64,000 nt of DNA from Longimicrobiales bacterium (lineage in GTDB: Bacteria; Gemmatimonadota; Gemmatimonadetes; Longimicrobiales; Gaopeijiaceae): contig OZ250165.1 in the NCBI GenBank assembly GCA_965238005.1, positions 3,808,001-3,872,000 on the forward strand. Direction: 5' to 3'. The translations under genes were made by a program, and so were the position numbers. The notes under the pieces were generated by a model. That model saw only the letters and a program-made list of their open reading frames with translations, searched no databases and had not been told where the DNA came from. Within the stretch, counting starts at the first letter, position 1. The number at the start of each line of letters is the position of its first letter. Of the stretch, positions 15,498 through 64,000 are shown in pieces.

Positions 15498-16889
15498 CTA
15501 GCCCACCGCCCCCGTGAGATCCCGCACCACGTCGTAGCGGGTCAGGATTCCCTTGAGCTCCCCGTCAGCACGCACCAGGACCGCCGGGTTCTCCCGGGTC
15601 AGGAGCCGCGCCGCCTCGTCGGCGTCCAGATGGCTGTCCACCACCGGGAAGGGCGCGTCCATGACCGATTCCACAGGCCGGTCCAGGAGCTCGGGGTCCT
15701 CGATGACGGTGGACATGAGCTCCGCCTCGGTGAGGGAGCCGACGCACTCGCCGTCCAGAACCACCGGCACCTGCGAGACGTGGAACGAGGTGATCGTGGA
15801 GAGGGCGCCCCGGACCGAAGTCGTGGGCTGAACCGTCACCAGCTCCGGAGCGTCGGCGCCCTTCTGCAGCACCATCTCGTGAATGCTCCGGTGTGCTCTC
15901 CTGAGGAAGCCGTTCTCCCGCATCCAGTCGTCGTCGTAGAGCTTGGACAGGTAGTGCTCGCCCCAGTCGCACAGGAGCGTGACGATCACGGCGTCGGGAT
16001 CGTTCACCTCCTTGGCGATCTCGACGGCCGCGTGGACAAGGAGTCCCGACGAGCCCCCGGCGAAGAGCCCCTCTTCCCGGCACAGCCGGCGCGTCATGGC
16101 GAAGGAGTCGGCGTCGCTCACCCTGACCCACCGGTCCGTGACGCTCATGTCCAGCGCTCCGGGGATCTTGTCGCTCCCCAGCCCCTCCACCTTGTAGGGT
16201 TCGCCTTCGATCATCTCGCCCGTGTCGAAAAAGGTCTTCAAGATCGATCCCACCGGATCCACGCCGATGATCTGCACGTCCGGGTTCCGCTCCTTCAGGA
16301 ACCGGCCCACCCCGGTAATCGTCCCTCCGGTGCCTGAGCCGGCCAGGAAGTGGGTGACCTCGCCGTCGGTCTGCTCCCACACTTCCGGACCCGTGCTTTC
16401 GTAGTGCGCCTCGGGGTTCGCGGGGTTGTAGAACTGATCCGCAAGAATGGCGCCAGGCGTCTCCCGCGCGATCCTCGCGGCCTTCTGCGTGTAGTGGTCG
16501 GGGTGGTCCGGGGGTACCGCCGTGGGAACGATCACCACGTCGGCGCCGAACGAGCGGAGGAGCTTCACCTTCTCCTGGCTCATCTTGTCGGGCATGGTGA
16601 AGATGCAGCGATAGCCGCGGATGGCAGCCACCATTGCCAGGGCCAGCCCGGTGTTCCCGCTGGTGGCCTCGACGATGACGCCGCCGGGCTTGAGTGCTCC
16701 TTCCCGCTCGGCCTTCTCCACGATGGCCAGGCCGATGCGGTCCTTCACCGATCCCCCGGGGTTCATGAACTCGCACTTCGCGTAGATCGTCCCGGGGACG
16801 CCCTGGGTGACGCTGTTCAGCCGAATGAGCGGCGTCCCGCCCACCACCTCAGTGACGTTGTCGTAGGGGCGAGCGTGATTCTCGCTCAT
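15498..16889 (-). CDS. Cystathionine beta-synthase with C-terminal CBS pair
   Basis: NPGGSVKDR PLP lysine, EATSGNTG, GTGGT, YKVEG.G, YLSKLYDDDWM, CBS domains. Confidence 0.92.
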   Translation of the reverse strand: MSENHARPYDNVTEVVGGTPLIRLNSVTQGVPGTIYAKCEFMNPGGSVKDRIGLAIVEKAEREGALKPGGVIVEATSGNTGLALAMVAAIRGYRCIFTMPDKMSQEKVKLLRSFGADVVIVPTAVPPDHPDHYTQKAARIARETPGAILADQFYNPANPEAHYESTGPEVWEQTDGEVTHFLAGSGTGGTITGVGRFLKERNPDVQIIGVDPVGSILKTFFDTGEMIEGEPYKVEGLGSDKIPGALDMSVTDRWVRVSDADSFAMTRRLCREEGLFAGGSSGLLVHAAVEIAKEVNDPDAVIVTLLCDWGEHYLSKLYDDDWMRENGFLRRAHRSIHEMVLQKGADAPELVTVQPTTSVRGALSTITSFHVSQVPVVLDGECVGSLTEAELMSTVIEDPELLDRPVESVMDAPFPVVDSHLDADEAARLLTRENPAVLVRADGELKGILTRYDVVRDLTGAVG

Positions 16890-47179: not shown

Positions 47180-47343
47180 GGCATCCTCGTTCGATCACGA
47201 GCGGAGACGAAATCCCCTGGTCGGGGCTCCGAGGCTTTGCTCAGGTACCCCACGGACGGCCCCGGGGAGCCGTCCTACGTACCTGATGACGAACGAGGCG
47301 GGAAGACTTGCACACGTGGGGCGTGTAAAAGTCCGGCCGGACC

Positions 47344-58363: not shown

Positions 58364-58978
58364 CTACGGTCTGGGCACCGCGAGTTGGCCCAGGAGCTCA
58401 TCGACGGTCGGGGAGCTCGGCGTCGTGATCGCCACCACGAATGGCTCCTCGGGGCCCGACACCATGTCGAAGCTCGCGTCTCCGTCCCCGTAGAGTGCCT
58501 TCACGTACTTCTCCAGCGCCGGCCGCACGGCGGCGAACGTCCCAGCGTCGCTGGGCGCCCGGAGCCGGTCGTAGATCCCGAACTCCACCTCGCTCGTACG
58601 GAACCGGTACCGCTCCTCCAGGGCAGGGTCGCTCTCCAGGAGCGACGCGGCCTGCAGCACGGAGCGGAAGGCCCGCGCGATCCCCTCCTCTTCCGTGGCT
58701 TCGGCCTTCCGGCGACCACGATACCGGAGCCCCGGGCGACCGGCGCGCATATCGAAGTAGTAGTGGGCCGTATCGCAGATCAGGACGATGCCGGGGCCCT
58801 TCGGCACGTGCTCGTAGCTCGCCACGTCGATGAGGAGCTCGTCCTCGAGAAGGCTCTCTCTGATCCACCGGTGAAAAACGGGGATCAGCTCCTTCAGACG
58901 CACGCCGGAGGGATCGTCGACGAAGAGCTTGACGCTGATCTCCGACGACGCGAGGGGTCGCAGGGGCTCCTCGGTCAC
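58364..58978 (-). CDS. Hypothetical protein translationally coupled to the sulfite reductase
   Basis: GTGA overlap; IPVFH.WI, LIDVA.Y.HV..GPG, DRL.AP motifs. Confidence 0.8.
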   Translation of the reverse strand: MTEEPLRPLASSEISVKLFVDDPSGVRLKELIPVFHRWIRESLLEDELLIDVASYEHVPKGPGIVLICDTAHYYFDMRAGRPGLRYRGRRKAEATEEEGIARAFRSVLQAASLLESDPALEERYRFRTSEVEFGIYDRLRAPSDAGTFAAVRPALEKYVKALYGDGDASFDMVSGPEEPFVVAITTPSSPTVDELLGQLAVPRP

Positions 58979-61251
58979 GCGGGTGCTCCGGCGGTCCCCA
59001 TCCTTTCGTAGCAGGCGTATGCCGCCTCGATGAAGAGTTGAGCCTCCTCGACGCGCTCCCGGGCTTGGTCGGGCCTCCCGCCATTCCCTCCGACCTCGTG
59101 CGCTCGGAACAGATAGCTGGCGAACTTCGCTCCCGCGAATCGGTCGTGGAAGCGCTTCGTCTCATGGAAGCGGGTCCTGAACTCTTCCACGATATGATCG
59201 GGGTCGTCGGTGACGTCGAGGAATTCGGTCTTCACCAGAGCCTTCGCGGCGGACAGCATGGCTCGATAGGCCAGTTCCGTGGCCTTCGCCGAAGCCTCCG
59301 CGTCGAGGAAGAGCTGCGCTTCGAAGACCTCGCGCTCGCTGGCTTGCAGCCCGAACTCCACCAGCGGCAGCATCTCGCCCGCGCACTCACCCTCTCCGTA
59401 GTCCTCCATCGTGTACTCACGTGGATCGCCCCAGTCGGAGTAGTAGGAGGGATCTTCCGCGTAGCGAGGGACCGCGGTGAGGTCTTTCAGGAAGTCCTTC
59501 ACCTCCGCCTTGCCGAGGCGCTGAATGAACTCTCCGAAGGTCTCGTCCGCCGCGCGCTCCTTGACATACCGGTCTGTGACCCGCCGAACGACTTCGGGTA
59601 TCTTCTTCGACGGGATCGCGAGCGTCGCCAGGCCGTACGAGCCGGCGTTCTCGGTCCACTTCCCGCCGAGCACGACCTGGAAGTGCGGCACGAGGCGGCC
59701 GTCCTTCTTGCGGCTGATGCCGTAGAAACCGAGGTCAGCGACGTGGTGCTGTCCGCAGGAGTTGAAGCAGCCACTCGCCTTGATCCGCAGGCCCTTGATG
59801 GCGTCATCGGCGTCACCCAGCTGGCTCCGAAGCTCGGCCGCCAGGCCCCGGGACGAAGCGATCCCGAGCTTGCAGGTGTCGGTGCCCGGGCAGGCCGTGA
59901 TGTCCGCGATGCTTTCGGCACCGGCCTCGGCCAGGTCGACGGCCTCGAGGGCCGCGTGGAGGTGTGGGAGGTCGGCCTCCTTCACCCAGCGAAGCACGAT
60001 GTTCTGCTCCACCGTCAGCCGGACGTTGTCGCCCACGAAGTCGCGCGCGATGTCGGCCAGGGACCGCATCTGGTCCGACGTGATGTCTCCAAGCGGCAGC
60101 TTTGCCGTGGCCACCGCGTATCCTGCCTGTCGTTGGGGCCGGACGTTGGTCTGCTGCCAAGCGAGGAAGGCCGCAGAAAAGTCGCCGTTGGTTGGCGGGT
60201 CGAGCGGCCTTCCCTCCCCGAGCGGTCGCTCCTCGTAGGCGTCCAGCTCTTCGAGGTACGCCGTCCAACGGGGATCGTGTGGAAGCGCCGCCCGCTCTTC
60301 GAGCACCAGCTTGCGGAACTCGTCGATGCCGAGCTTGGCCACGAGGAACTTGATCCGTGCGCGCCCCCGATTCTTCTTCTCACCCAGTCGTGCGAAGACT
60401 CGGGCCACGGCCTGGGAAAGGGGCAACAACTCCTGCTCGGTCACAAACTCGTCCAGGAGCTTCGCCTGGTGCGGGATCGCGCCGAGCCCCCCGCCGACGT
60501 AGAAGCCGAACCCGCGCCGTAGCTTGCCGTCCTCCATGAGCTCCCTGGCGATCAGCCCCAGATCGTGCAGGCTCACGAGCCCGCACGCCTCACCCTCACA
60601 GCCCGAAAACGCGACCTTGAACTTGCGGCCGAGGTCCTGTACGTCGGGGTGACCCAGCAAGAACTCTTTGAGTGCCTCAGCGTACGGCGTGACGTCGAAG
60701 GTCTCCGTACGGCACACACCGGCGAGGTGGCAAGCCGTGACGTTGCGCACCGAGTTGCCGCAAGCTTCGCGCGTGGTGATCCCCACCGCGGCCAAGCGTC
60801 GCATGAGGTCGGGAGTGTCGTCGATATGGACGAAGTGGAGTTGGATGTCTTGGCGGGTCGTCACGTGGGAAATCCCGTCCGAGTAGTCCTCAGCCAGCTC
60901 CGCGAGCACGTCCATCTGCTCGGTCGTGACCTTCCCGTATGGGATCTTGATCCGGACCATGCCCGGCGCGTCCCACACGGTTTCGGCACCCTTCGTTTCG
61001 TGTTCCTGATAGCGCAGGCTCCGGTTTTGGGTCCCGTCGTGACGCTGACCGTTGTCGTAGCGCTGGCCGTAGACCCCACGTCGGAGACGAGTCTCCGCGA
61101 ACAGCCGCTCGTCGACCTCGCCTCGACTTCGGAGCTCCATCTGCATCTCGAAGACCTCGATCTCTCGACCGAGCTTGTCGGGGATCCGCCCCTTCAGCTT
61201 CTCACTCCAGGAGCCGGGCGTCCCTGTACTCTCGAGCACGCCTTCCATCAT
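58975..61251 (-). CDS. Siroheme/4Fe-4S nitrite/sulfite reductase hemoprotein with C-terminal extension
   Basis: RL.RG.YGQR, TTRQD.Q.H, G..VRN, RKFK, ACPG...CKLG, SGC.NSCGQH; extra helical C-terminal domain. Confidence 0.92.
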   Translation of the reverse strand: MMEGVLESTGTPGSWSEKLKGRIPDKLGREIEVFEMQMELRSRGEVDERLFAETRLRRGVYGQRYDNGQRHDGTQNRSLRYQEHETKGAETVWDAPGMVRIKIPYGKVTTEQMDVLAELAEDYSDGISHVTTRQDIQLHFVHIDDTPDLMRRLAAVGITTREACGNSVRNVTACHLAGVCRTETFDVTPYAEALKEFLLGHPDVQDLGRKFKVAFSGCEGEACGLVSLHDLGLIARELMEDGKLRRGFGFYVGGGLGAIPHQAKLLDEFVTEQELLPLSQAVARVFARLGEKKNRGRARIKFLVAKLGIDEFRKLVLEERAALPHDPRWTAYLEELDAYEERPLGEGRPLDPPTNGDFSAAFLAWQQTNVRPQRQAGYAVATAKLPLGDITSDQMRSLADIARDFVGDNVRLTVEQNIVLRWVKEADLPHLHAALEAVDLAEAGAESIADITACPGTDTCKLGIASSRGLAAELRSQLGDADDAIKGLRIKASGCFNSCGQHHVADLGFYGISRKKDGRLVPHFQVVLGGKWTENAGSYGLATLAIPSKKIPEVVRRVTDRYVKERAADETFGEFIQRLGKAEVKDFLKDLTAVPRYAEDPSYYSDWGDPREYTMEDYGEGECAGEMLPLVEFGLQASEREVFEAQLFLDAEASAKATELAYRAMLSAAKALVKTEFLDVTDDPDHIVEEFRTRFHETKRFHDRFAGAKFASYLFRAHEVGGNGGRPDQARERVEEAQLFIEAAYACYERMGTAGAPA

Positions 61252-61264
61252 CGTTCTCCTTCTC

Positions 61265-62704
61265 TCAGGCAACGCCCGCCGCCGCGCGCCCACCGTCGGC
61301 CACCACGGCGTATTCGTCGTTGCGTTCGCCCTTCAAGACTCCTCCCTCGTTTTCCAGCAGCCGCCGGGCCACCTCGCCTACGATGAGGGTCGCGGGCGAG
61401 CGGAGCTCCGACGCGCGGATTCTCTCGGCTAGCGTAGCGAGGGTTCCGACGACCATCCGTTCGTCGCTGCGGGAGGCGCGGCTCACGGCCACCGCGGGGG
61501 TGTCGGGTGCGCGCCCCTCGGAAGCGAGCCCCTCCAACACGTCTTCGGCCGATCCGAGTCCCATCAACACGATCACGGTTTCCTCTTCGGGAGGAAGCTC
61601 ACCACGCATGCGGCCACCGGCGTCGTGCCCGGTTCGCACCGTGAACCCCTTCGCGAGGCCGCGCTGGGTCAGGGGTGTTCCCGCAGCGGCGGGCGCGGCA
61701 ACCACGGCGCTCACGCCTGGTACAACCTCCCAGGAGATCCCGGCTGCAGTGAGGGCCTCCACTTCCTCGCCCCCCCGCCCGAAGACGAACGGGTCACCCC
61801 CGTGGAGGCGTACCACGCGTCTTCCGGAACTCGCCTCTCGGATCATGAGCGGAACCCTCCGATCCGAGGCTGAGACAACACGCTTGGACGCCCCCCGCGA
61901 ACGGTGCCCTACGTCGACCACCTTCGTGCCCGGAAGCGCGAGTTCCAACACCTCATCCTCCACGAGGGCATCGTGGAGGATGACGTCGGCCCGCTGGATC
62001 CGGTCCAGAGCACGCAACGTCAGAAGCTGCCGGCTGCCCGGTCCCGCACCCACGATCGCCACGGTCCCCGGGTCGAACGGCTCCTCCTCCTCCCAATACA
62101 TGGCCTCCAGGCGGCGCGCGGCCGTCTCCGTGTCACCCCGGTCCACCAGCTTGGTGATGGTGGGATCGAAGAGCGCCCTGAGGAGGCGGCCGCGTTGCCT
62201 GAGGCCCTTGAGGCCTCGAGAGCGAAGGCGGATGAGTAAGTCCGCCACCGACGTCAGGCTGCGGGGAATGGCCGCCTCCAGCAGCCGGCGAAGCTGCCCC
62301 GCCAGGAGCGGCGAGCCGCCGTCGGTGCTGATGGTCATCACCACAGGACCCCGGCGGACGATGGCCGGCGAGTAGAAGTCGCAGAAGGCCGGGTCATCCG
62401 CCGCGTTCACGAGGATGCCCCTAGCCCGGGCCGCTTCCGCCAGTCGGCGATTCACGGCGGGATCGTCCGTGGCGGCCACCACCACCTTGGCCCCCGAGAC
62501 GTCGTCGTCCCGGACGGGCCGCCGGTCGAAGCGCCACACCTCGGGCAGCCACGCCTGCATTTCCGGCGACACGCCTGGAGAGACGAGGTGGATCCTTGCG
62601 CCCGCGTGGATCAGCGGCACGATCTTCTCCGCCGCGACCCCGCCGCCCCCGGCCAGGAGGACGCGCCGGCCTTCCAACCCCACGAGCTGAATCGGATATC
62701 CCAT
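61265..62704 (-). CDS. cysG: Siroheme synthase (dehydrogenase/ferrochelatase plus uroporphyrinogen-III methyltransferase)
   Basis: GGG.VA..K, ATDD, VN.ADDP..CDF..P, IST.G.SP; VGAGPG, D.LV, GDPFVFGRGGEE, VVPGVS. Confidence 0.93.
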   Translation of the reverse strand: MGYPIQLVGLEGRRVLLAGGGGVAAEKIVPLIHAGARIHLVSPGVSPEMQAWLPEVWRFDRRPVRDDDVSGAKVVVAATDDPAVNRRLAEAARARGILVNAADDPAFCDFYSPAIVRRGPVVMTISTDGGSPLLAGQLRRLLEAAIPRSLTSVADLLIRLRSRGLKGLRQRGRLLRALFDPTITKLVDRGDTETAARRLEAMYWEEEEPFDPGTVAIVGAGPGSRQLLTLRALDRIQRADVILHDALVEDEVLELALPGTKVVDVGHRSRGASKRVVSASDRRVPLMIREASSGRRVVRLHGGDPFVFGRGGEEVEALTAAGISWEVVPGVSAVVAAPAAAGTPLTQRGLAKGFTVRTGHDAGGRMRGELPPEEETVIVLMGLGSAEDVLEGLASEGRAPDTPAVAVSRASRSDERMVVGTLATLAERIRASELRSPATLIVGEVARRLLENEGGVLKGERNDEYAVVADGGRAAAGVA

Positions 62705-62739
62705 ATGACAGCTCCAAGAGCTCCGAAGCTTCAGGAACG

Positions 62740-62773
62740 AAAAAAAACCCCGACCTCCTCAGGGAAGCCGGGG
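62740..62773 (-). terminator. Intrinsic terminator (attenuator) in the cysG leader
   Basis: CCCCGGCUUCC-cuga-GGAGGUCGGGG 11-bp stem followed by U8, 35 nt before the cysG ATG. Confidence 0.88.
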
Positions 62774-62795
62774 CTCGGGAGTCTCGCCGCGTCCG

Positions 62796-62879
62796 CTAGG
62801 GGCAGCCGGCTCCGGACCCGCCCTCCCGGGCCAGAGTCATGCGACAACAGCAACAAGCACAGTGATCAAAGCGGCTCAT
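62796..62879 (-). CDS. Poly-Cys leader peptide MSRFDHCACCCCRMTLAREGGSGAGCP
   Basis: ATG preceded by AGGGAGA; five Cys codons among codons 7-12; TAG stop 22 nt before the terminator hairpin. Confidence 0.8.
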   Translation of the reverse strand: MSRFDHCACCCCRMTLAREGGSGAGCP

Positions 62880-62937
62880 GTTCCAGGTGTCTCCCTGAGC
62901 GGTCGTGCGCCGATGCGTTCTGAATTCCAGGCTATAT

Positions 62938-62967
62938 AGATTAAGAGGACACTCCCGGCCGAGTCAA
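62938..62967 (-). promoter_or_regulatory. Putative sigma-70 promoter of the Cys leader/cysG operon
   Basis: TTGACT-N18-TAATCT in a locally AT-rich patch about 60 nt upstream of the leader ATG. Confidence 0.5.
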
Positions 62968-63101
62968 CGCCGCCGGCGGTAGTGGTACCCCGCCGGCGCA
63001 CACCGCCTGAGGACAGGACGGACGGATCCCCAACCCGACATCAGTGGCGCGTCGCTCCGTTTAGTTCGAGAGATACCGCTTGGCTTCTTGGAGACCGGCG
63101 T

Positions 63102-63158
63102 GACCGGAGTCGGGAGATCGGGCTGCGGCTCGCCATCGGAGCCGATGGGCGGCGAGTG
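63102..63158 (+). pseudogene. Short remnant of an ADOP/FtsX-type permease
   Basis: DRSREIGLRLAIGADGRRV matches the R.REIG.R.ALGA motif. Confidence 0.5.
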
Positions 63159-63467
63159 CCCGGGGGACGGCGTGTTCTGTCAACGTGACACCCGGGTCCG
63201 TTTCCTGGGACAGTCTCCCCGGCCGACCCTTCCCAACGGACTCCCTCCCGGCCCTCGAGATCGGCCCGTCACAACGACCCTTCGCATCCTGTAACTTATT
63301 GTTGTCTAATACGTAAGGGTGTAACACACGCTCCGGATGGCTCGGAACGTGGGTGAGAAAGCGGAGTTTGGCCCGCTTCCTGCATTTATGCAGTCCGACC
63401 GCCCGAGGCGGCGGTCTCAATCGTGGAAAGGGTCGAAACGACCTGGGAAGAGGTGGTGGAGAAGAAA

Positions 63468-63581
63468 ATGTTTACTGAAGTGACACGTATGACGCGAGCC
63501 ATGAAGGCGGTCCGCATGGGACTGATCGTTACGTCCTGGGCGTTCGTGGTCCTGGGCTTCATGCTGATGTACAACGCATGA
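63468..63581 (+). CDS. Putative 37-aa single-TM small protein
   Basis: GGAG RBS; MFTEVTRMTRAMKAVRMGLIVTSWAFVVLGFMLMYNA; hairpin right after the stop. Confidence 0.5.
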   Translation: MFTEVTRMTRAMKAVRMGLIVTSWAFVVLGFMLMYNA

Positions 63582-63816
63582 CCACTCGGGTGTCCGCCTG
63601 ACGGACGCCCTTACACTCTGCCAATATGGCAGACGACACGGCTGGATGGCAGGGATGGGTCCCGCCGAGGTGGCAGGAGAGGCTCCGTAGCCGAATGGCT
63701 GCGGGGCCTCTTGGGTTTTGGGTTGTGATCCATGCTCCGAGCCCCCACGTTGGTCGACCCTGCTGGACCTGCGACTGCGATGCCTGCAGCCGTGCAAAGG
63801 AGAAGACATACACGCC

Positions 63817-64000
63817 GTGATCTCGGATCCCCTCGCGGTCTTCCTGGTCCTTGCCGTCATCGTCCTCGTGGCGCTGAGCCTCGAGGTACGCTTCCCGCTC
63901 TTCCGGGCCCTCGGGGCCGCCCTGGTGGGGATCCTCATGGGCATGCTGCTGTCCAATACCGGCGTGCTCCCGGGGGAGTCGGCCGCGTACGAGCTCCTCA
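63817..64000 (+). CDS. DUF819-family membrane protein (5' part, runs off the window)
   Basis: GTG start, AAGGAG upstream; hydrophobic N-terminus with LSN.G.LP..S..Y motif. Confidence 0.7.
   Translation, partial: MISDPLAVFLVLAVIVLVALSLEVRFPLFRALGAALVGILMGMLLSNTGVLPGESAAYELL

Follow-up and report, generated by a model that had tools for sequence, protein, structure and literature searches.

A conserved poly-cysteine leader and intrinsic terminator upstream of cysG in a Gemmatimonadota bacterium: a probable cysteine-responsive transcription attenuator

The siroheme synthase gene (cysG) of a Longimicrobiales bacterium from the phylum Gemmatimonadota is preceded by a short open reading frame (ORF) that carries a run of cysteine codons and is itself followed by a strong intrinsic terminator. 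We examined this element within a 64,000-nt stretch of DNA, hereafter called the window, which corresponds to G000:C1:3808001-3872000 of the organism's single-contig genome (designated G000; 4.84 Mb, 64.8% G+C). A promoter-like site, the small ORF (sORF), the Cys-codon cluster, a hairpin with a U8 tract, and the start of cysG all lie inside one 264-nt stretch of the minus strand (62967-62704). Judged from sequence and comparative data, this element is most probably an attenuator of the classical leader-peptide type, in which a translating ribosome would sense charged tRNA-Cys and thereby control transcription of an operon composed of cysG and a nirA/sir-type reductase gene. A preliminary description of the window had proposed a Cys-sensing transcriptional attenuator of the cysG-sulfite reductase operon, and comparative evidence now supports that proposal: the leader is retained in 18 of 18 orthologs, and nonhomologous leaders with the same organization precede cysH and cysH-cysG-sir operons. 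Translation of the leader, stalling of the ribosome, the exchange of helices, and the response to cysteine are what we infer from this organization.

In the proposed mechanism, transcription would start near 62931, driven by the conserved promoter-like site, with translation of the 27-codon leader proceeding behind the moving RNA polymerase. When Cys-tRNA is plentiful, the ribosome would clear the five Cys codons (62861-62844), and would unwind and then occupy codons 18-27 up to the stop codon at 62798-62796. The G-rich strand at 62827-62809 then could not hold the 5' arm of the terminator, the hairpin at 62776-62745 would form together with its U8 tract, and transcription would end 35 nt 5' of cysG. 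When Cys-tRNA is scarce, the ribosome would stall in the Cys cluster with its front edge extending only to about 62830. The strand at 62827-62809 would be expected to pair with 62783-62762 once this segment had been made, such that the 5' arm would be sequestered, no terminator would form, and the polymerase would read through into cysG and the sulfite reductase gene.

Conservation and composition of the cysG leader

Full-length orthologs of CysG were found in three of 40 relatives (G001, G002, and G005, where G numbers designate the genomes of relatives), and the leader is located at the same place in all three. The genomes G001 and G002 belong to the same genus as the organism carrying the window, and G005 represents another genus whose CysG is 75% identical. 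Among database records, the nearest relatives of CysG exhibit 96-97% and 73% identity. The leader of G005 encodes MTYGSTGCTCRCCRSILPGKGASGVRCA, and its hairpin arms are altered yet still pair. A metagenome scan that used four CysG proteins as queries yielded 16 loci whose CysG proteins are 73-81% identical. (Loci with L numbers are other loci, including metagenome contigs.) Two of these carry just 18 and 49 nt of upstream DNA, and the module is present in all 14 that have enough upstream sequence for inspection. The resulting alignment comprises 18 sequences, namely G000, G001, G002, G005, and the 14 metagenome loci, and its rows are related to each other. None of the conclusions drawn here depends on the unpublished genome G025.

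The 27-codon poly-Cys ORF reported in the preliminary description is exact in the sequence, and the sORF, its ATG, the Cys run, and the terminator are kept in every one of the 18 orthologous leaders. Counted from the common ATG, the leaders are 25-28 codons long, and four rows carry an additional in-frame ATG upstream. Residues 2-6 vary freely across the orthologs. The Cys run retains three to five Cys in all rows, with single losses to W, S, or Y. The stop codon occupies one alignment place in 16 of the rows and is located two codons earlier in L075 and L082, and overall TAG is used seven times, TGA six times, and TAA five times. Such interchange of stop codons at a conserved place is a signature of a translated frame. 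Several columns of the Cys cluster are invariant over all 18 sequences, some synonymous positions included, and no insertion or deletion occurs between the Cys run and the G-rich strand of the predicted antiterminator in any row.

The Cys run of the window leader places five Cys within six codons, and the observation that four of the five clustered Cys codons are TGT despite the GC-rich DNA was confirmed. In the genome background, represented by 1588 long ORFs with high G+C content at third codon positions (GC3), TGT accounts for 24.3% of Cys codons, and Cys makes up 0.73% of all codons. Over the three leader types of G000, 13 of 16 run codons are TGT, and the same preference extends to the 18 orthologous leaders, whose runs contain 53 TGT vs. 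27 TGC codons (53/80). The genome encodes a single tRNA-Cys with the anticodon GCA, and the excess of UGU codons, which are read by wobble, may sharpen the response.

The terminator also proved to be as initially described, a GC-rich hairpin of 11 bp followed by U8 and located 35 nt before cysG, except that the 11-bp core (CCCCGGCUUCC/GGAGGUCGGGG) is part of a full stem of 14 pairs. The predicted free energy of the hairpin is -24.0 kcal/mol. Base-pairing is preserved in 97.2% of the 251 cells examined across the 18 orthologs, and falls to 64-68% when the partner strand is slid by one column. Three pairs change on both sides, and the covariation score was reached by only 4 of 500 column shuffles. 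Alignment of related leaders, which had been recommended as a check on the original proposal, thus reveals both a conserved Cys run and a covarying terminator stem.

It was also important to consider how often such an arrangement might appear by coincidence in a genome of this composition. A six-frame scan of G000 for stop-to-stop frames with at least four Cys in seven residues returned 191 frames, most of which are contained in long frames or come from two insertion sequences that occur in many copies. The clean short frames among them are the window leader and four others, which are the cysH leaders described below, in two copies each. Many of the false Cys-run matches came from a repeat frame of the insertion sequence (IS) at window position 47338 (…RSRCCCCLRIF…) and from a second repeat frame present in about 12 copies (…RRRWCCACCGG…).

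A second scan was not biased toward any amino acid. It began with 774 terminator-like sites, 308 of which have the start of a long high-GC3 ORF within 260 nt downstream, and ranked the sORFs upstream according to the maximum number of any single residue in seven. Only the two copies of the cysH_2 leader have 6 of 7. The window leader and both copies of the cysH_1 leader are found at 5 of 7, where the remaining rows are runs of S, R, P, L, or G, which are common products of GC-rich frames, and where two rows represent an alternative frame of the cysH_2 leader. Rows at 4 of 7 add runs of A, T, and V. Among the sORFs at 5 or 6 of 7, the Cys leaders are the sole examples built on a rare amino acid. 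No run of like clarity was evident for Trp, His, Phe, Thr, Leu, or Ile/Val in the top 70 rows of the ranking, in which the trp, his, and leu operons were not individually inspected. The combination of leader and terminator therefore exceeds what is expected by chance.

Cysteine leaders of unrelated sequence upstream of other sulfur genes

A 1.35-kb segment carrying cysH occurs twice in G000, with the copies located 25.8 kb apart and sharing 99-100% identity (G000:C1:1719251-1720600 and 1745059-1746400; loci L044, L045, L046, and L072). The duplicated gene matches the Pfam family PAPS_reduct (1.5e-46) and scores 238.9 bits with NF002537, vs. a cutoff of 154. Upstream of each copy of cysH are two distinct poly-Cys leaders arranged in tandem, MGHKTDVRKRTLVVILNSCCCRCSCPSPVGCRGDVV and MTPRTAMCCCCCCTVTPREGRVPTSR, both of which have a hairpin and T-run of their own. 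Another hairpin with a T-run, the third of the region, lies between the two leaders, and the duplication spans the whole 5' region. Genes for a transposase and an integrase are located a few kilobases 3' of each copy.

The peptide segments that follow the Cys run are alike in the cysG leader (T-L-A-R-E-G-G; 62796-62830, minus strand) and the second cysH leader (T-V-T-P-R-E-G-R; G000:C1:1719690-1719730). This likeness may indicate a common origin, or both leaders may need a G-rich antiterminator strand in that frame.

To establish scope, we note that the sample of the order consisted of 151 genomes, 26 of which carry cysH at E <= 1e-20, and that 900 nt upstream of each gene were inspected. A Cys leader and terminator precede cysH in G000, G011, G104, and G115, which are all four of the cysH-bearing genomes in the family of the window organism, and in G093, which belongs to another family. 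Genome G011 has the first cysH leader only. The other 21 cysH-bearing genomes have no convincing Cys leader within 900 nt, and the Cys-rich frames at L049, L051, L055, L056, and L066 are long GC-rich frames or overlap cysH.

A broader sample of the phylum included 301 genomes, of which 21 carry a sulfite reductase gene (sir) at E <= 1e-40, or 20 besides G000, and here the search extended 3.5 kb upstream. A Cys leader with a hairpin and T-run is located upstream of the sir operon in 10 of these 20 genomes (G005, G011, G104, G046, G293, G228, G383, G202, G211, and G208). The T-runs in G202 and G208 are weaker and were not called automatically, and their hairpins were read by eye from the sequence. 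The genes located behind the leaders in further families of the phylum include cysH-sirC-cobA-sir (G293 and G228), cysH-cysG-sir (G383 and G202), and cysG-sir (G211), and in G046 the leader is located directly before sir. These phylum leaders cannot be aligned with the window leader. What they have in common is the Cys run, the terminator, and the target pathway.

Genes for assimilatory sulfate reduction are uncommon in these samples, with cysH in 26 of 151 order genomes and sulfite reductase in 21 of 301 phylum genomes, and most of those genomes are >90% complete. Many Gemmatimonadota may depend on reduced sulfur.

The predicted antiterminator and competing explanations

Classical attenuators rely on a second helix that competes with the terminator, and a candidate for this helix is evident in the leader RNAs. 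(Leader nucleotides are numbered from the A of the ATG at 62879, which is nt 1 on the minus strand.) When RNAs were folded without the 3' arm of the terminator, the 5' arm paired with the ORF segment just past the Cys run in 10 of 10 leaders folded. In the window RNA, the predicted antiterminator joins nt 53-71 (62827-62809) with nt 97-118 (62783-62762), and the domain from nt 53 to nt 118 has a predicted free energy of -36.5 kcal/mol, vs. -24.0 for the terminator. With the last Cys codon in the A site, a ribosome would cover the RNA to about nt 47-49, and the antiterminator strand begins at nt 53. Once at the stop codon, with its A site at nt 82, the ribosome would cover about nt 67-95, and the base of the hairpin is at nt 104. 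This geometry fits the original suggestion that stalling frees the antiterminator strand and full translation masks it.

One position in the 5' arm of the terminator is either G or A (CCGGC or CCGAC), and its changes can be followed in both helices. With its terminator partner, this position forms A-U in nine rows, G-U in six, and G-C in three. In the antiterminator register identified by RNAalifold, it lies opposite C or U, forming U-A in six, C-G in five, and U-G in two of 17 distinct rows, with the pair broken in four. That the same position covaries with its partners in the antiterminator and in the terminator is expected from two mutually exclusive helices.

Some of the leaders preceding cysH are predicted to switch even at equilibrium. 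The terminator probability of the G011 leader is 0.30 when the RNA is free, 0.00-0.22 with a ribosome stalled at the Cys codons, and 0.76 with a ribosome at the stop codon. For the cysH_1 leader of G000, the corresponding equilibrium values are 0.63, 0.11-0.25, and 0.65. The antiterminators of G011, G115, and G000 cysH_1 are superior to those of shuffled sequences, of which only 0, 4, and 10 of 500, respectively, are as good. The same test was negative for three of the six cysH-type leaders at the 10-in-500 level.

Several observations weigh against the interpretation of the window element as an attenuator, and many of these concern the antiterminator. Three overlapping registers are possible for this helix, and the data do not choose among them. 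The first is that of the minimum free energy structure of G000, which is paired in 82.7% of cells. The second is the pairing put forward in the preliminary description, between GGAGCCGG (62813-62806) and CCGGCUUC in the 5' arm of the terminator, which is possible in the window and is paired in 85.4% of cells over the 18 orthologous leaders. The third emerged de novo from RNAalifold with 18 truncated leaders and places GGGA...GG.YCGG.GC (nt 53-71) opposite the whole 5' arm. This last register is favored by RNAalifold over the one originally described, with 92.9% of cells paired and 56-58% when slid by one column.

Covariation in the antiterminator is weak. The score of the RNAalifold register is reached by 49 of 500 shuffles, the rows of the alignment are related, and the 4 of 17 distinct rows noted above break the sole covarying pair of this register. 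Moreover, the duplex between the post-Cys segment and the 5' arm in the window is valued at -16.9 kcal/mol vs. a mean of -18.9 for dinucleotide shuffles, of which 390 of 500 match or surpass it. The equivalent duplexes in G001, G002, and G005 are likewise no better than shuffles. Composition alone could account for a G-rich strand opposite a C-rich arm.

Folding with ribosome footprints, which was also recommended as a check, gave a divided result. At equilibrium, the full-length window RNA keeps its terminator with a probability of 0.75-0.76 at every position of a 29-nt footprint and thus shows no switch of the kind seen with the G011 and G000 cysH_1 leaders. Because the terminator is kept at equilibrium in all states, the switch must be kinetic, as in known attenuators. 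Furthermore, direct masking by a ribosome at the stop codon extends over 62813-62785 and leaves 62827-62817 uncovered, and the exclusion of this latter segment from pairing rests on a steric argument. Folds of G000, G001, G002, and G005 also revealed no conserved 1:2 helix (also called an anti-antiterminator or protector) between the Cys region and the antiterminator strand, and untranslated RNA is therefore predicted to read through. A 1:2 helix is not present in all known attenuators.

The signals for initiation and the distribution of the leaders provide additional points of this kind. A generic scan for sigma-70 promoters made no call upstream of the leader because the -10 element agrees with TATAAT at only three of six positions. 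The claim of a promoter, first described as TTGACT-N18-TAATCT, therefore rests on conservation. The sequence is present in the window, and its columns are nearly invariant: 16 of the 18 orthologs align with GTTGAC(T)-N18-TA(C/A)TCT, the exceptions being G005, with its own TTGACG-N17-TATACT, and L077, whose slice begins past the -35 element. Homology among close relatives starts immediately 5' of the -35 element, and conservation in the 18-sequence alignment starts at this element. The candidate Shine-Dalgarno (SD) sequence GGGAG is rather distant (11 nt) from the ATG of the leader. A GGGRA block is found at a comparable distance in most orthologs, and is missing in L088. In the phylum sample, 10 of the 20 other sir-bearing genomes lack a Cys leader within 3.5 kb (G029, G291, G282, G186, G401, G242, G318, G195, G191, and G196, with only 815 nt available for G196). 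Finally, sat and the two best cysK-like genes of G000 have no Cys-rich sORF in the 1.5 kb that precedes them.

These uncertainties leave room for other explanations, although we consider each of them to be improbable. One is translational attenuation of the mycobacterial type, wherein the poly-Cys sORF would govern access to the ribosome binding site (RBS) of cysG, and effects on transcription would be secondary consequences of polarity. Poly-Cys sORFs upstream of sulfur genes in Mycobacterium smegmatis act in this way according to a published account (bioRxiv 10.1101/834739). In addition, a small hairpin that pairs GUUCC with GGAGC of the RBS can form in the segment separating the U-tract from cysG, and the L088 ortholog appears to be leaderless, with a -10 element just 9 nt from the ATG. 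However, the duplex between the Cys tract and the cysG RBS region is valued at -10.7 kcal/mol, which 420 of 500 shuffles equal or improve upon. A strong, conserved, and covarying intrinsic terminator is also located between the sORF and cysG, and the mycobacterial elements are described as being without one. We therefore judge that there is only a slim prospect that the window element operates in this manner.

Equally slim is the prospect that the sORF encodes a functional Cys-rich micropeptide, such as a metal-binding or redox-binding peptide or a peptide precursor, and that the hairpin is its leaky terminator that lets cysG be expressed. There is some conservation past the Cys run (LPREG and GAGC), and T-x-PREG, a similar stretch, is found after the Cys run of the second cysH leader of G000. 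However, the conserved C-terminal residues coincide with predicted RNA helices, some synonymous positions are invariant, and the residues immediately following the start codon are the freely varying ones noted above. Paralogous leaders have in common just the Cys run and terminator, the partner genes are always those for sulfate reduction, and no genes for modifying enzymes or export adjoin the leader.

Even less credible is a switch that operates independently of ribosomes, such as an RNA that binds a metabolite or protein, or a small RNA that ends at the terminator, in which the Cys codons would be incidental. Strong conservation at the nucleotide level and nested hairpins extending from the stop codon to the terminator would be compatible with such an RNA. 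Against this possibility stand the conserved ATG, frame, and Cys codons and the interchangeable stops, which constitute a coding signature, and the fact that nonhomologous leaders have just the Cys run and terminator in common. An Rfam scan of 61000-64000 also yielded nothing relevant, with the best matches having E-values of about 1-8, far under gathering scores. The least plausible proposal is that the module is a product of chance or a relic, in which a Cys-rich GC frame happens to lie beside the terminator of an upstream transcript and cysG is served by another promoter, because although GC-rich genomes are rich in open frames, as the 191 frames found in G000 attest, most of these are insertion-sequence copies or lie inside long frames, the Cys leaders top the unbiased ranking, the ORF is kept in all 18 orthologs, and just 35 nt with no called promoter separate the U-tract from cysG.

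Relation to known attenuators and features of the locus

Classical leader-peptide transcription attenuators include trpL, hisL, leuL, thrL, pheL, and the ilv leaders of Escherichia coli and Salmonella. To our knowledge, cysteine is absent from the classical list of amino acids whose genes are subject to this type of control. The window element resembles the trp and his types in having a short leader ORF, predicted to be translated, with a cluster of codons for the end product, and in having an intrinsic terminator before the first structural gene. As in these systems, a predicted alternative helix takes the 5' arm of the terminator, with its other strand located just past the control codons, and the run contains rare or slowly read codons. 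It differs from them in that the amino acid sensed would be cysteine, in its occurrence in Gemmatimonadota, in the lack of a conserved 1:2 protector helix among the folds examined, and in its association with the reductive branch only (cysG, sulfite reductase, and cysH) rather than with the whole pathway. The classical attenuation model is summarized in the introduction of a report on mycobacterial leaders (bioRxiv 10.1101/834739).

That report (Canestrari et al. 2020; bioRxiv 10.1101/834739) describes leaderless poly-Cys sORFs (Ms5788A and relatives) that give cysteine-responsive translational attenuation in M. smegmatis, and states that attenuation mediated by upstream ORFs (uORFs) had previously not been described for cysteine. 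An earlier study (Seliverstov et al. 2005; PMC1262725) predicts leader peptides with Cys runs and without terminators in Mycobacterium, Propionibacterium acnes, and Bifidobacterium longum, and a further article (PMC13236596) cites the mycobacterial case only. The window leader shares with the mycobacterial sORFs a run of Cys codons in a short upstream ORF that precedes sulfur or cysteine genes, and the same stalling logic. As portrayed in these sources, the mycobacterial sORFs are leaderless and lack an intrinsic terminator, and their Cys tract pairs with the downstream SD sequence, with polarity following. In contrast, the window leader has a conserved terminator, a Cys tract without special complementarity to the cysG RBS, and a predicted 5' untranslated region (UTR) of about 52 nt.

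Another parallel is the uORFC-8-2 motif of Rhodobacterales, predicted by Brewer et al. (2021; PMC8632094) and consisting of a uORF with two Cys codons and a terminator before cysS. It too is predicted to act by ribosome-mediated attenuation, and it combines Cys codons with a terminator stem followed by a U run. That motif precedes a tRNA synthetase gene in Alphaproteobacteria, and its tandem Cys codons, at about positions 14-15 and mostly UGC, reside inside the first stem. In the window leader, cysG is located downstream, and the five Cys codons occupy positions 7-12 and lie in no conserved stem in folds that keep the antiterminator. No sequence relation between the two was detected by an Rfam scan, for which inclusion of uORFC-8-2 in Rfam 15 has not been established. 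A full-text search of the openly readable literature, with subscription-only papers outside its reach, yielded no account of a Cys leader with a terminator ahead of cysG, cysH, or a sulfite reductase gene, and none for Gemmatimonadota. This outcome is consistent with the earlier impression that such an element is undescribed for the lineage.

Gemmatimonadota are common soil and marine bacteria for which almost no gene regulation has been characterized. The evidence points to a conserved terminator-based cysteine attenuator acting on siroheme synthesis, sulfite reduction, and PAPS/APS reduction in this phylum. We consider it reasonably probable that attenuation of this type, keyed to cysteine and based on terminators, is the standard control of reductive sulfate assimilation (cysH, cysG/siroheme, and sulfite reductase) across Gemmatimonadota, and that nonhomologous leaders have arisen or been rebuilt many times, can occur as tandem stacks, and are tuned by a preference for UGU. 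If true, cysteine would join the textbook list of amino acids under attenuation control, and the leaders would serve as a phylum-wide marker of cysteine autotrophy that can be read from sequence. Such a system would offer a model for how these bacteria match sulfur assimilation to demand, and would account for an unannotated conserved element before cysG, cysH, and sir. The leaders could also serve as compact natural parts of about 200 nt for cysteine-responsive expression, and their tandem arrangement and UGU bias bear on how such switches are tuned.

The components of the locus are presented in Table 1. All genes known to lie under these leaders belong to the cysteine pathway: cysG and the sulfite/nitrite reductase gene in the window, and cysH behind the paralogous leaders.

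Table 1. Positions of the cysG leader components and adjoining genes in the window
Feature	Position	Strand	Description	Basis
Promoter-like site	62938..62967	-	-35 TTGACT at 62967-62962, 18-nt spacer, -10 TAATCT at 62943-62938	Sequence and near-invariant columns in 18 orthologs
Candidate Shine-Dalgarno sequence of leader ORF	62891..62895	-	GGGAG, 11 nt 5' of ATG	Sequence
Leader ORF	62796..62879	-	27 codons plus TAG, MSRFDHCACCCCRMTLAREGGSGAGCP; ATG at 62879, TAG at 62798-62796	Sequence and conservation
Regulatory Cys-codon cluster	62844..62861	-	Codons 7-12, TGT GCT TGT TGC TGT TGT	Sequence
Predicted antiterminator, 5' strand	62809..62827	-	GGGAGGGCGGGUCCGGAGC; leader nt 53-71, codons 18-24; contains most of GGAGCCGG (62813-62806)	
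Predicted antiterminator, 3' strand	62762..62783	-	Leader nt 97-118; overlaps 5' arm of terminator	
Intrinsic terminator	62740..62776	-	Hairpin at 62776-62745 with 14 pairs and 4-nt loop CUGA; U8 at 62747-62740	
cysG	61265..62704	-	Siroheme synthase, 479 aa, first structural gene	Pfam TP_methylase 3.4e-47, NAD_binding_7 6.5e-30
NirA-family sulfite/nitrite reductase hemoprotein	58975..61293	-	772-aa open frame; overlaps end of cysG	Pfam NIR_SIR 6.8e-53, NIR_SIR_ferr 5.2e-40

From the position of the promoter-like site, transcription is predicted to start near 62931, which would give the 5' UTR length stated above. In one metagenome contig (L088:1230-1503), the -10 element TACTGT is located 9 nt from the ATG of the leader, a distance that is about 50 nt in the window and most orthologs, and this leader mRNA may be leaderless or nearly so. 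CysG scores 402.5 bits with the NCBIfam equivalog model NF007922, for which the cutoff is 400, and its ATG (62704) is 35 nt past the last U of the U-tract. The best NCBIfam model for the reductase is that of the NirA family, at 271.5 bits and under the cutoff of 523. Its true start is probably further downstream than the start of the open frame, and from the arrangement of the genes it is taken to be in one operon with cysG. Sulfite would be the substrate of this NirA-family enzyme, as suggested by the presence of cysG and a Cys leader. Elsewhere in the pathway, CysD (TIGR02039) was not found in G000. The best cysK-like gene of this genome also resides in the window (15942-16853, minus strand; G000:C1:3823942-3824853), and its score of 336 bits with TIGR01139 is just below the cutoff of 351.

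Data from RNA libraries (four runs, containing small shares of this stretch) include a 180-nt contig from a relative that spans 62740-62896 plus 15 additional letters, with 13 differences. A separate contig spans 62565-62715, and none joins the two. These libraries may contain DNA, and the contigs do not demonstrate transcription or a 3' end.

The spacer between the U-tract and cysG (62738-62711, minus strand) contains the GUUCC noted above, whose pairing with GGAGC of the cysG RBS would surround an inner AGCU/AGCU stem at about -10 kcal/mol. A palindrome or direct repeat of the form GAGCTC-N3-4-(G)AGCTC is present in the spacer of 11 of the 18 orthologs, the others being G005, L077, L079, L081, L083, L084, and L085. 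This hairpin or repeat may be a second, translational layer of control, or may merely be the RBS. At some distance from the operon, the window carries the left end of the IS-like repeat mentioned earlier, which extends from 47338 to beyond 47861 (from G000:C1:3855338). This repeat occurs about 44 more times in the genome, in most cases with 100% identity across 520 nt or more.

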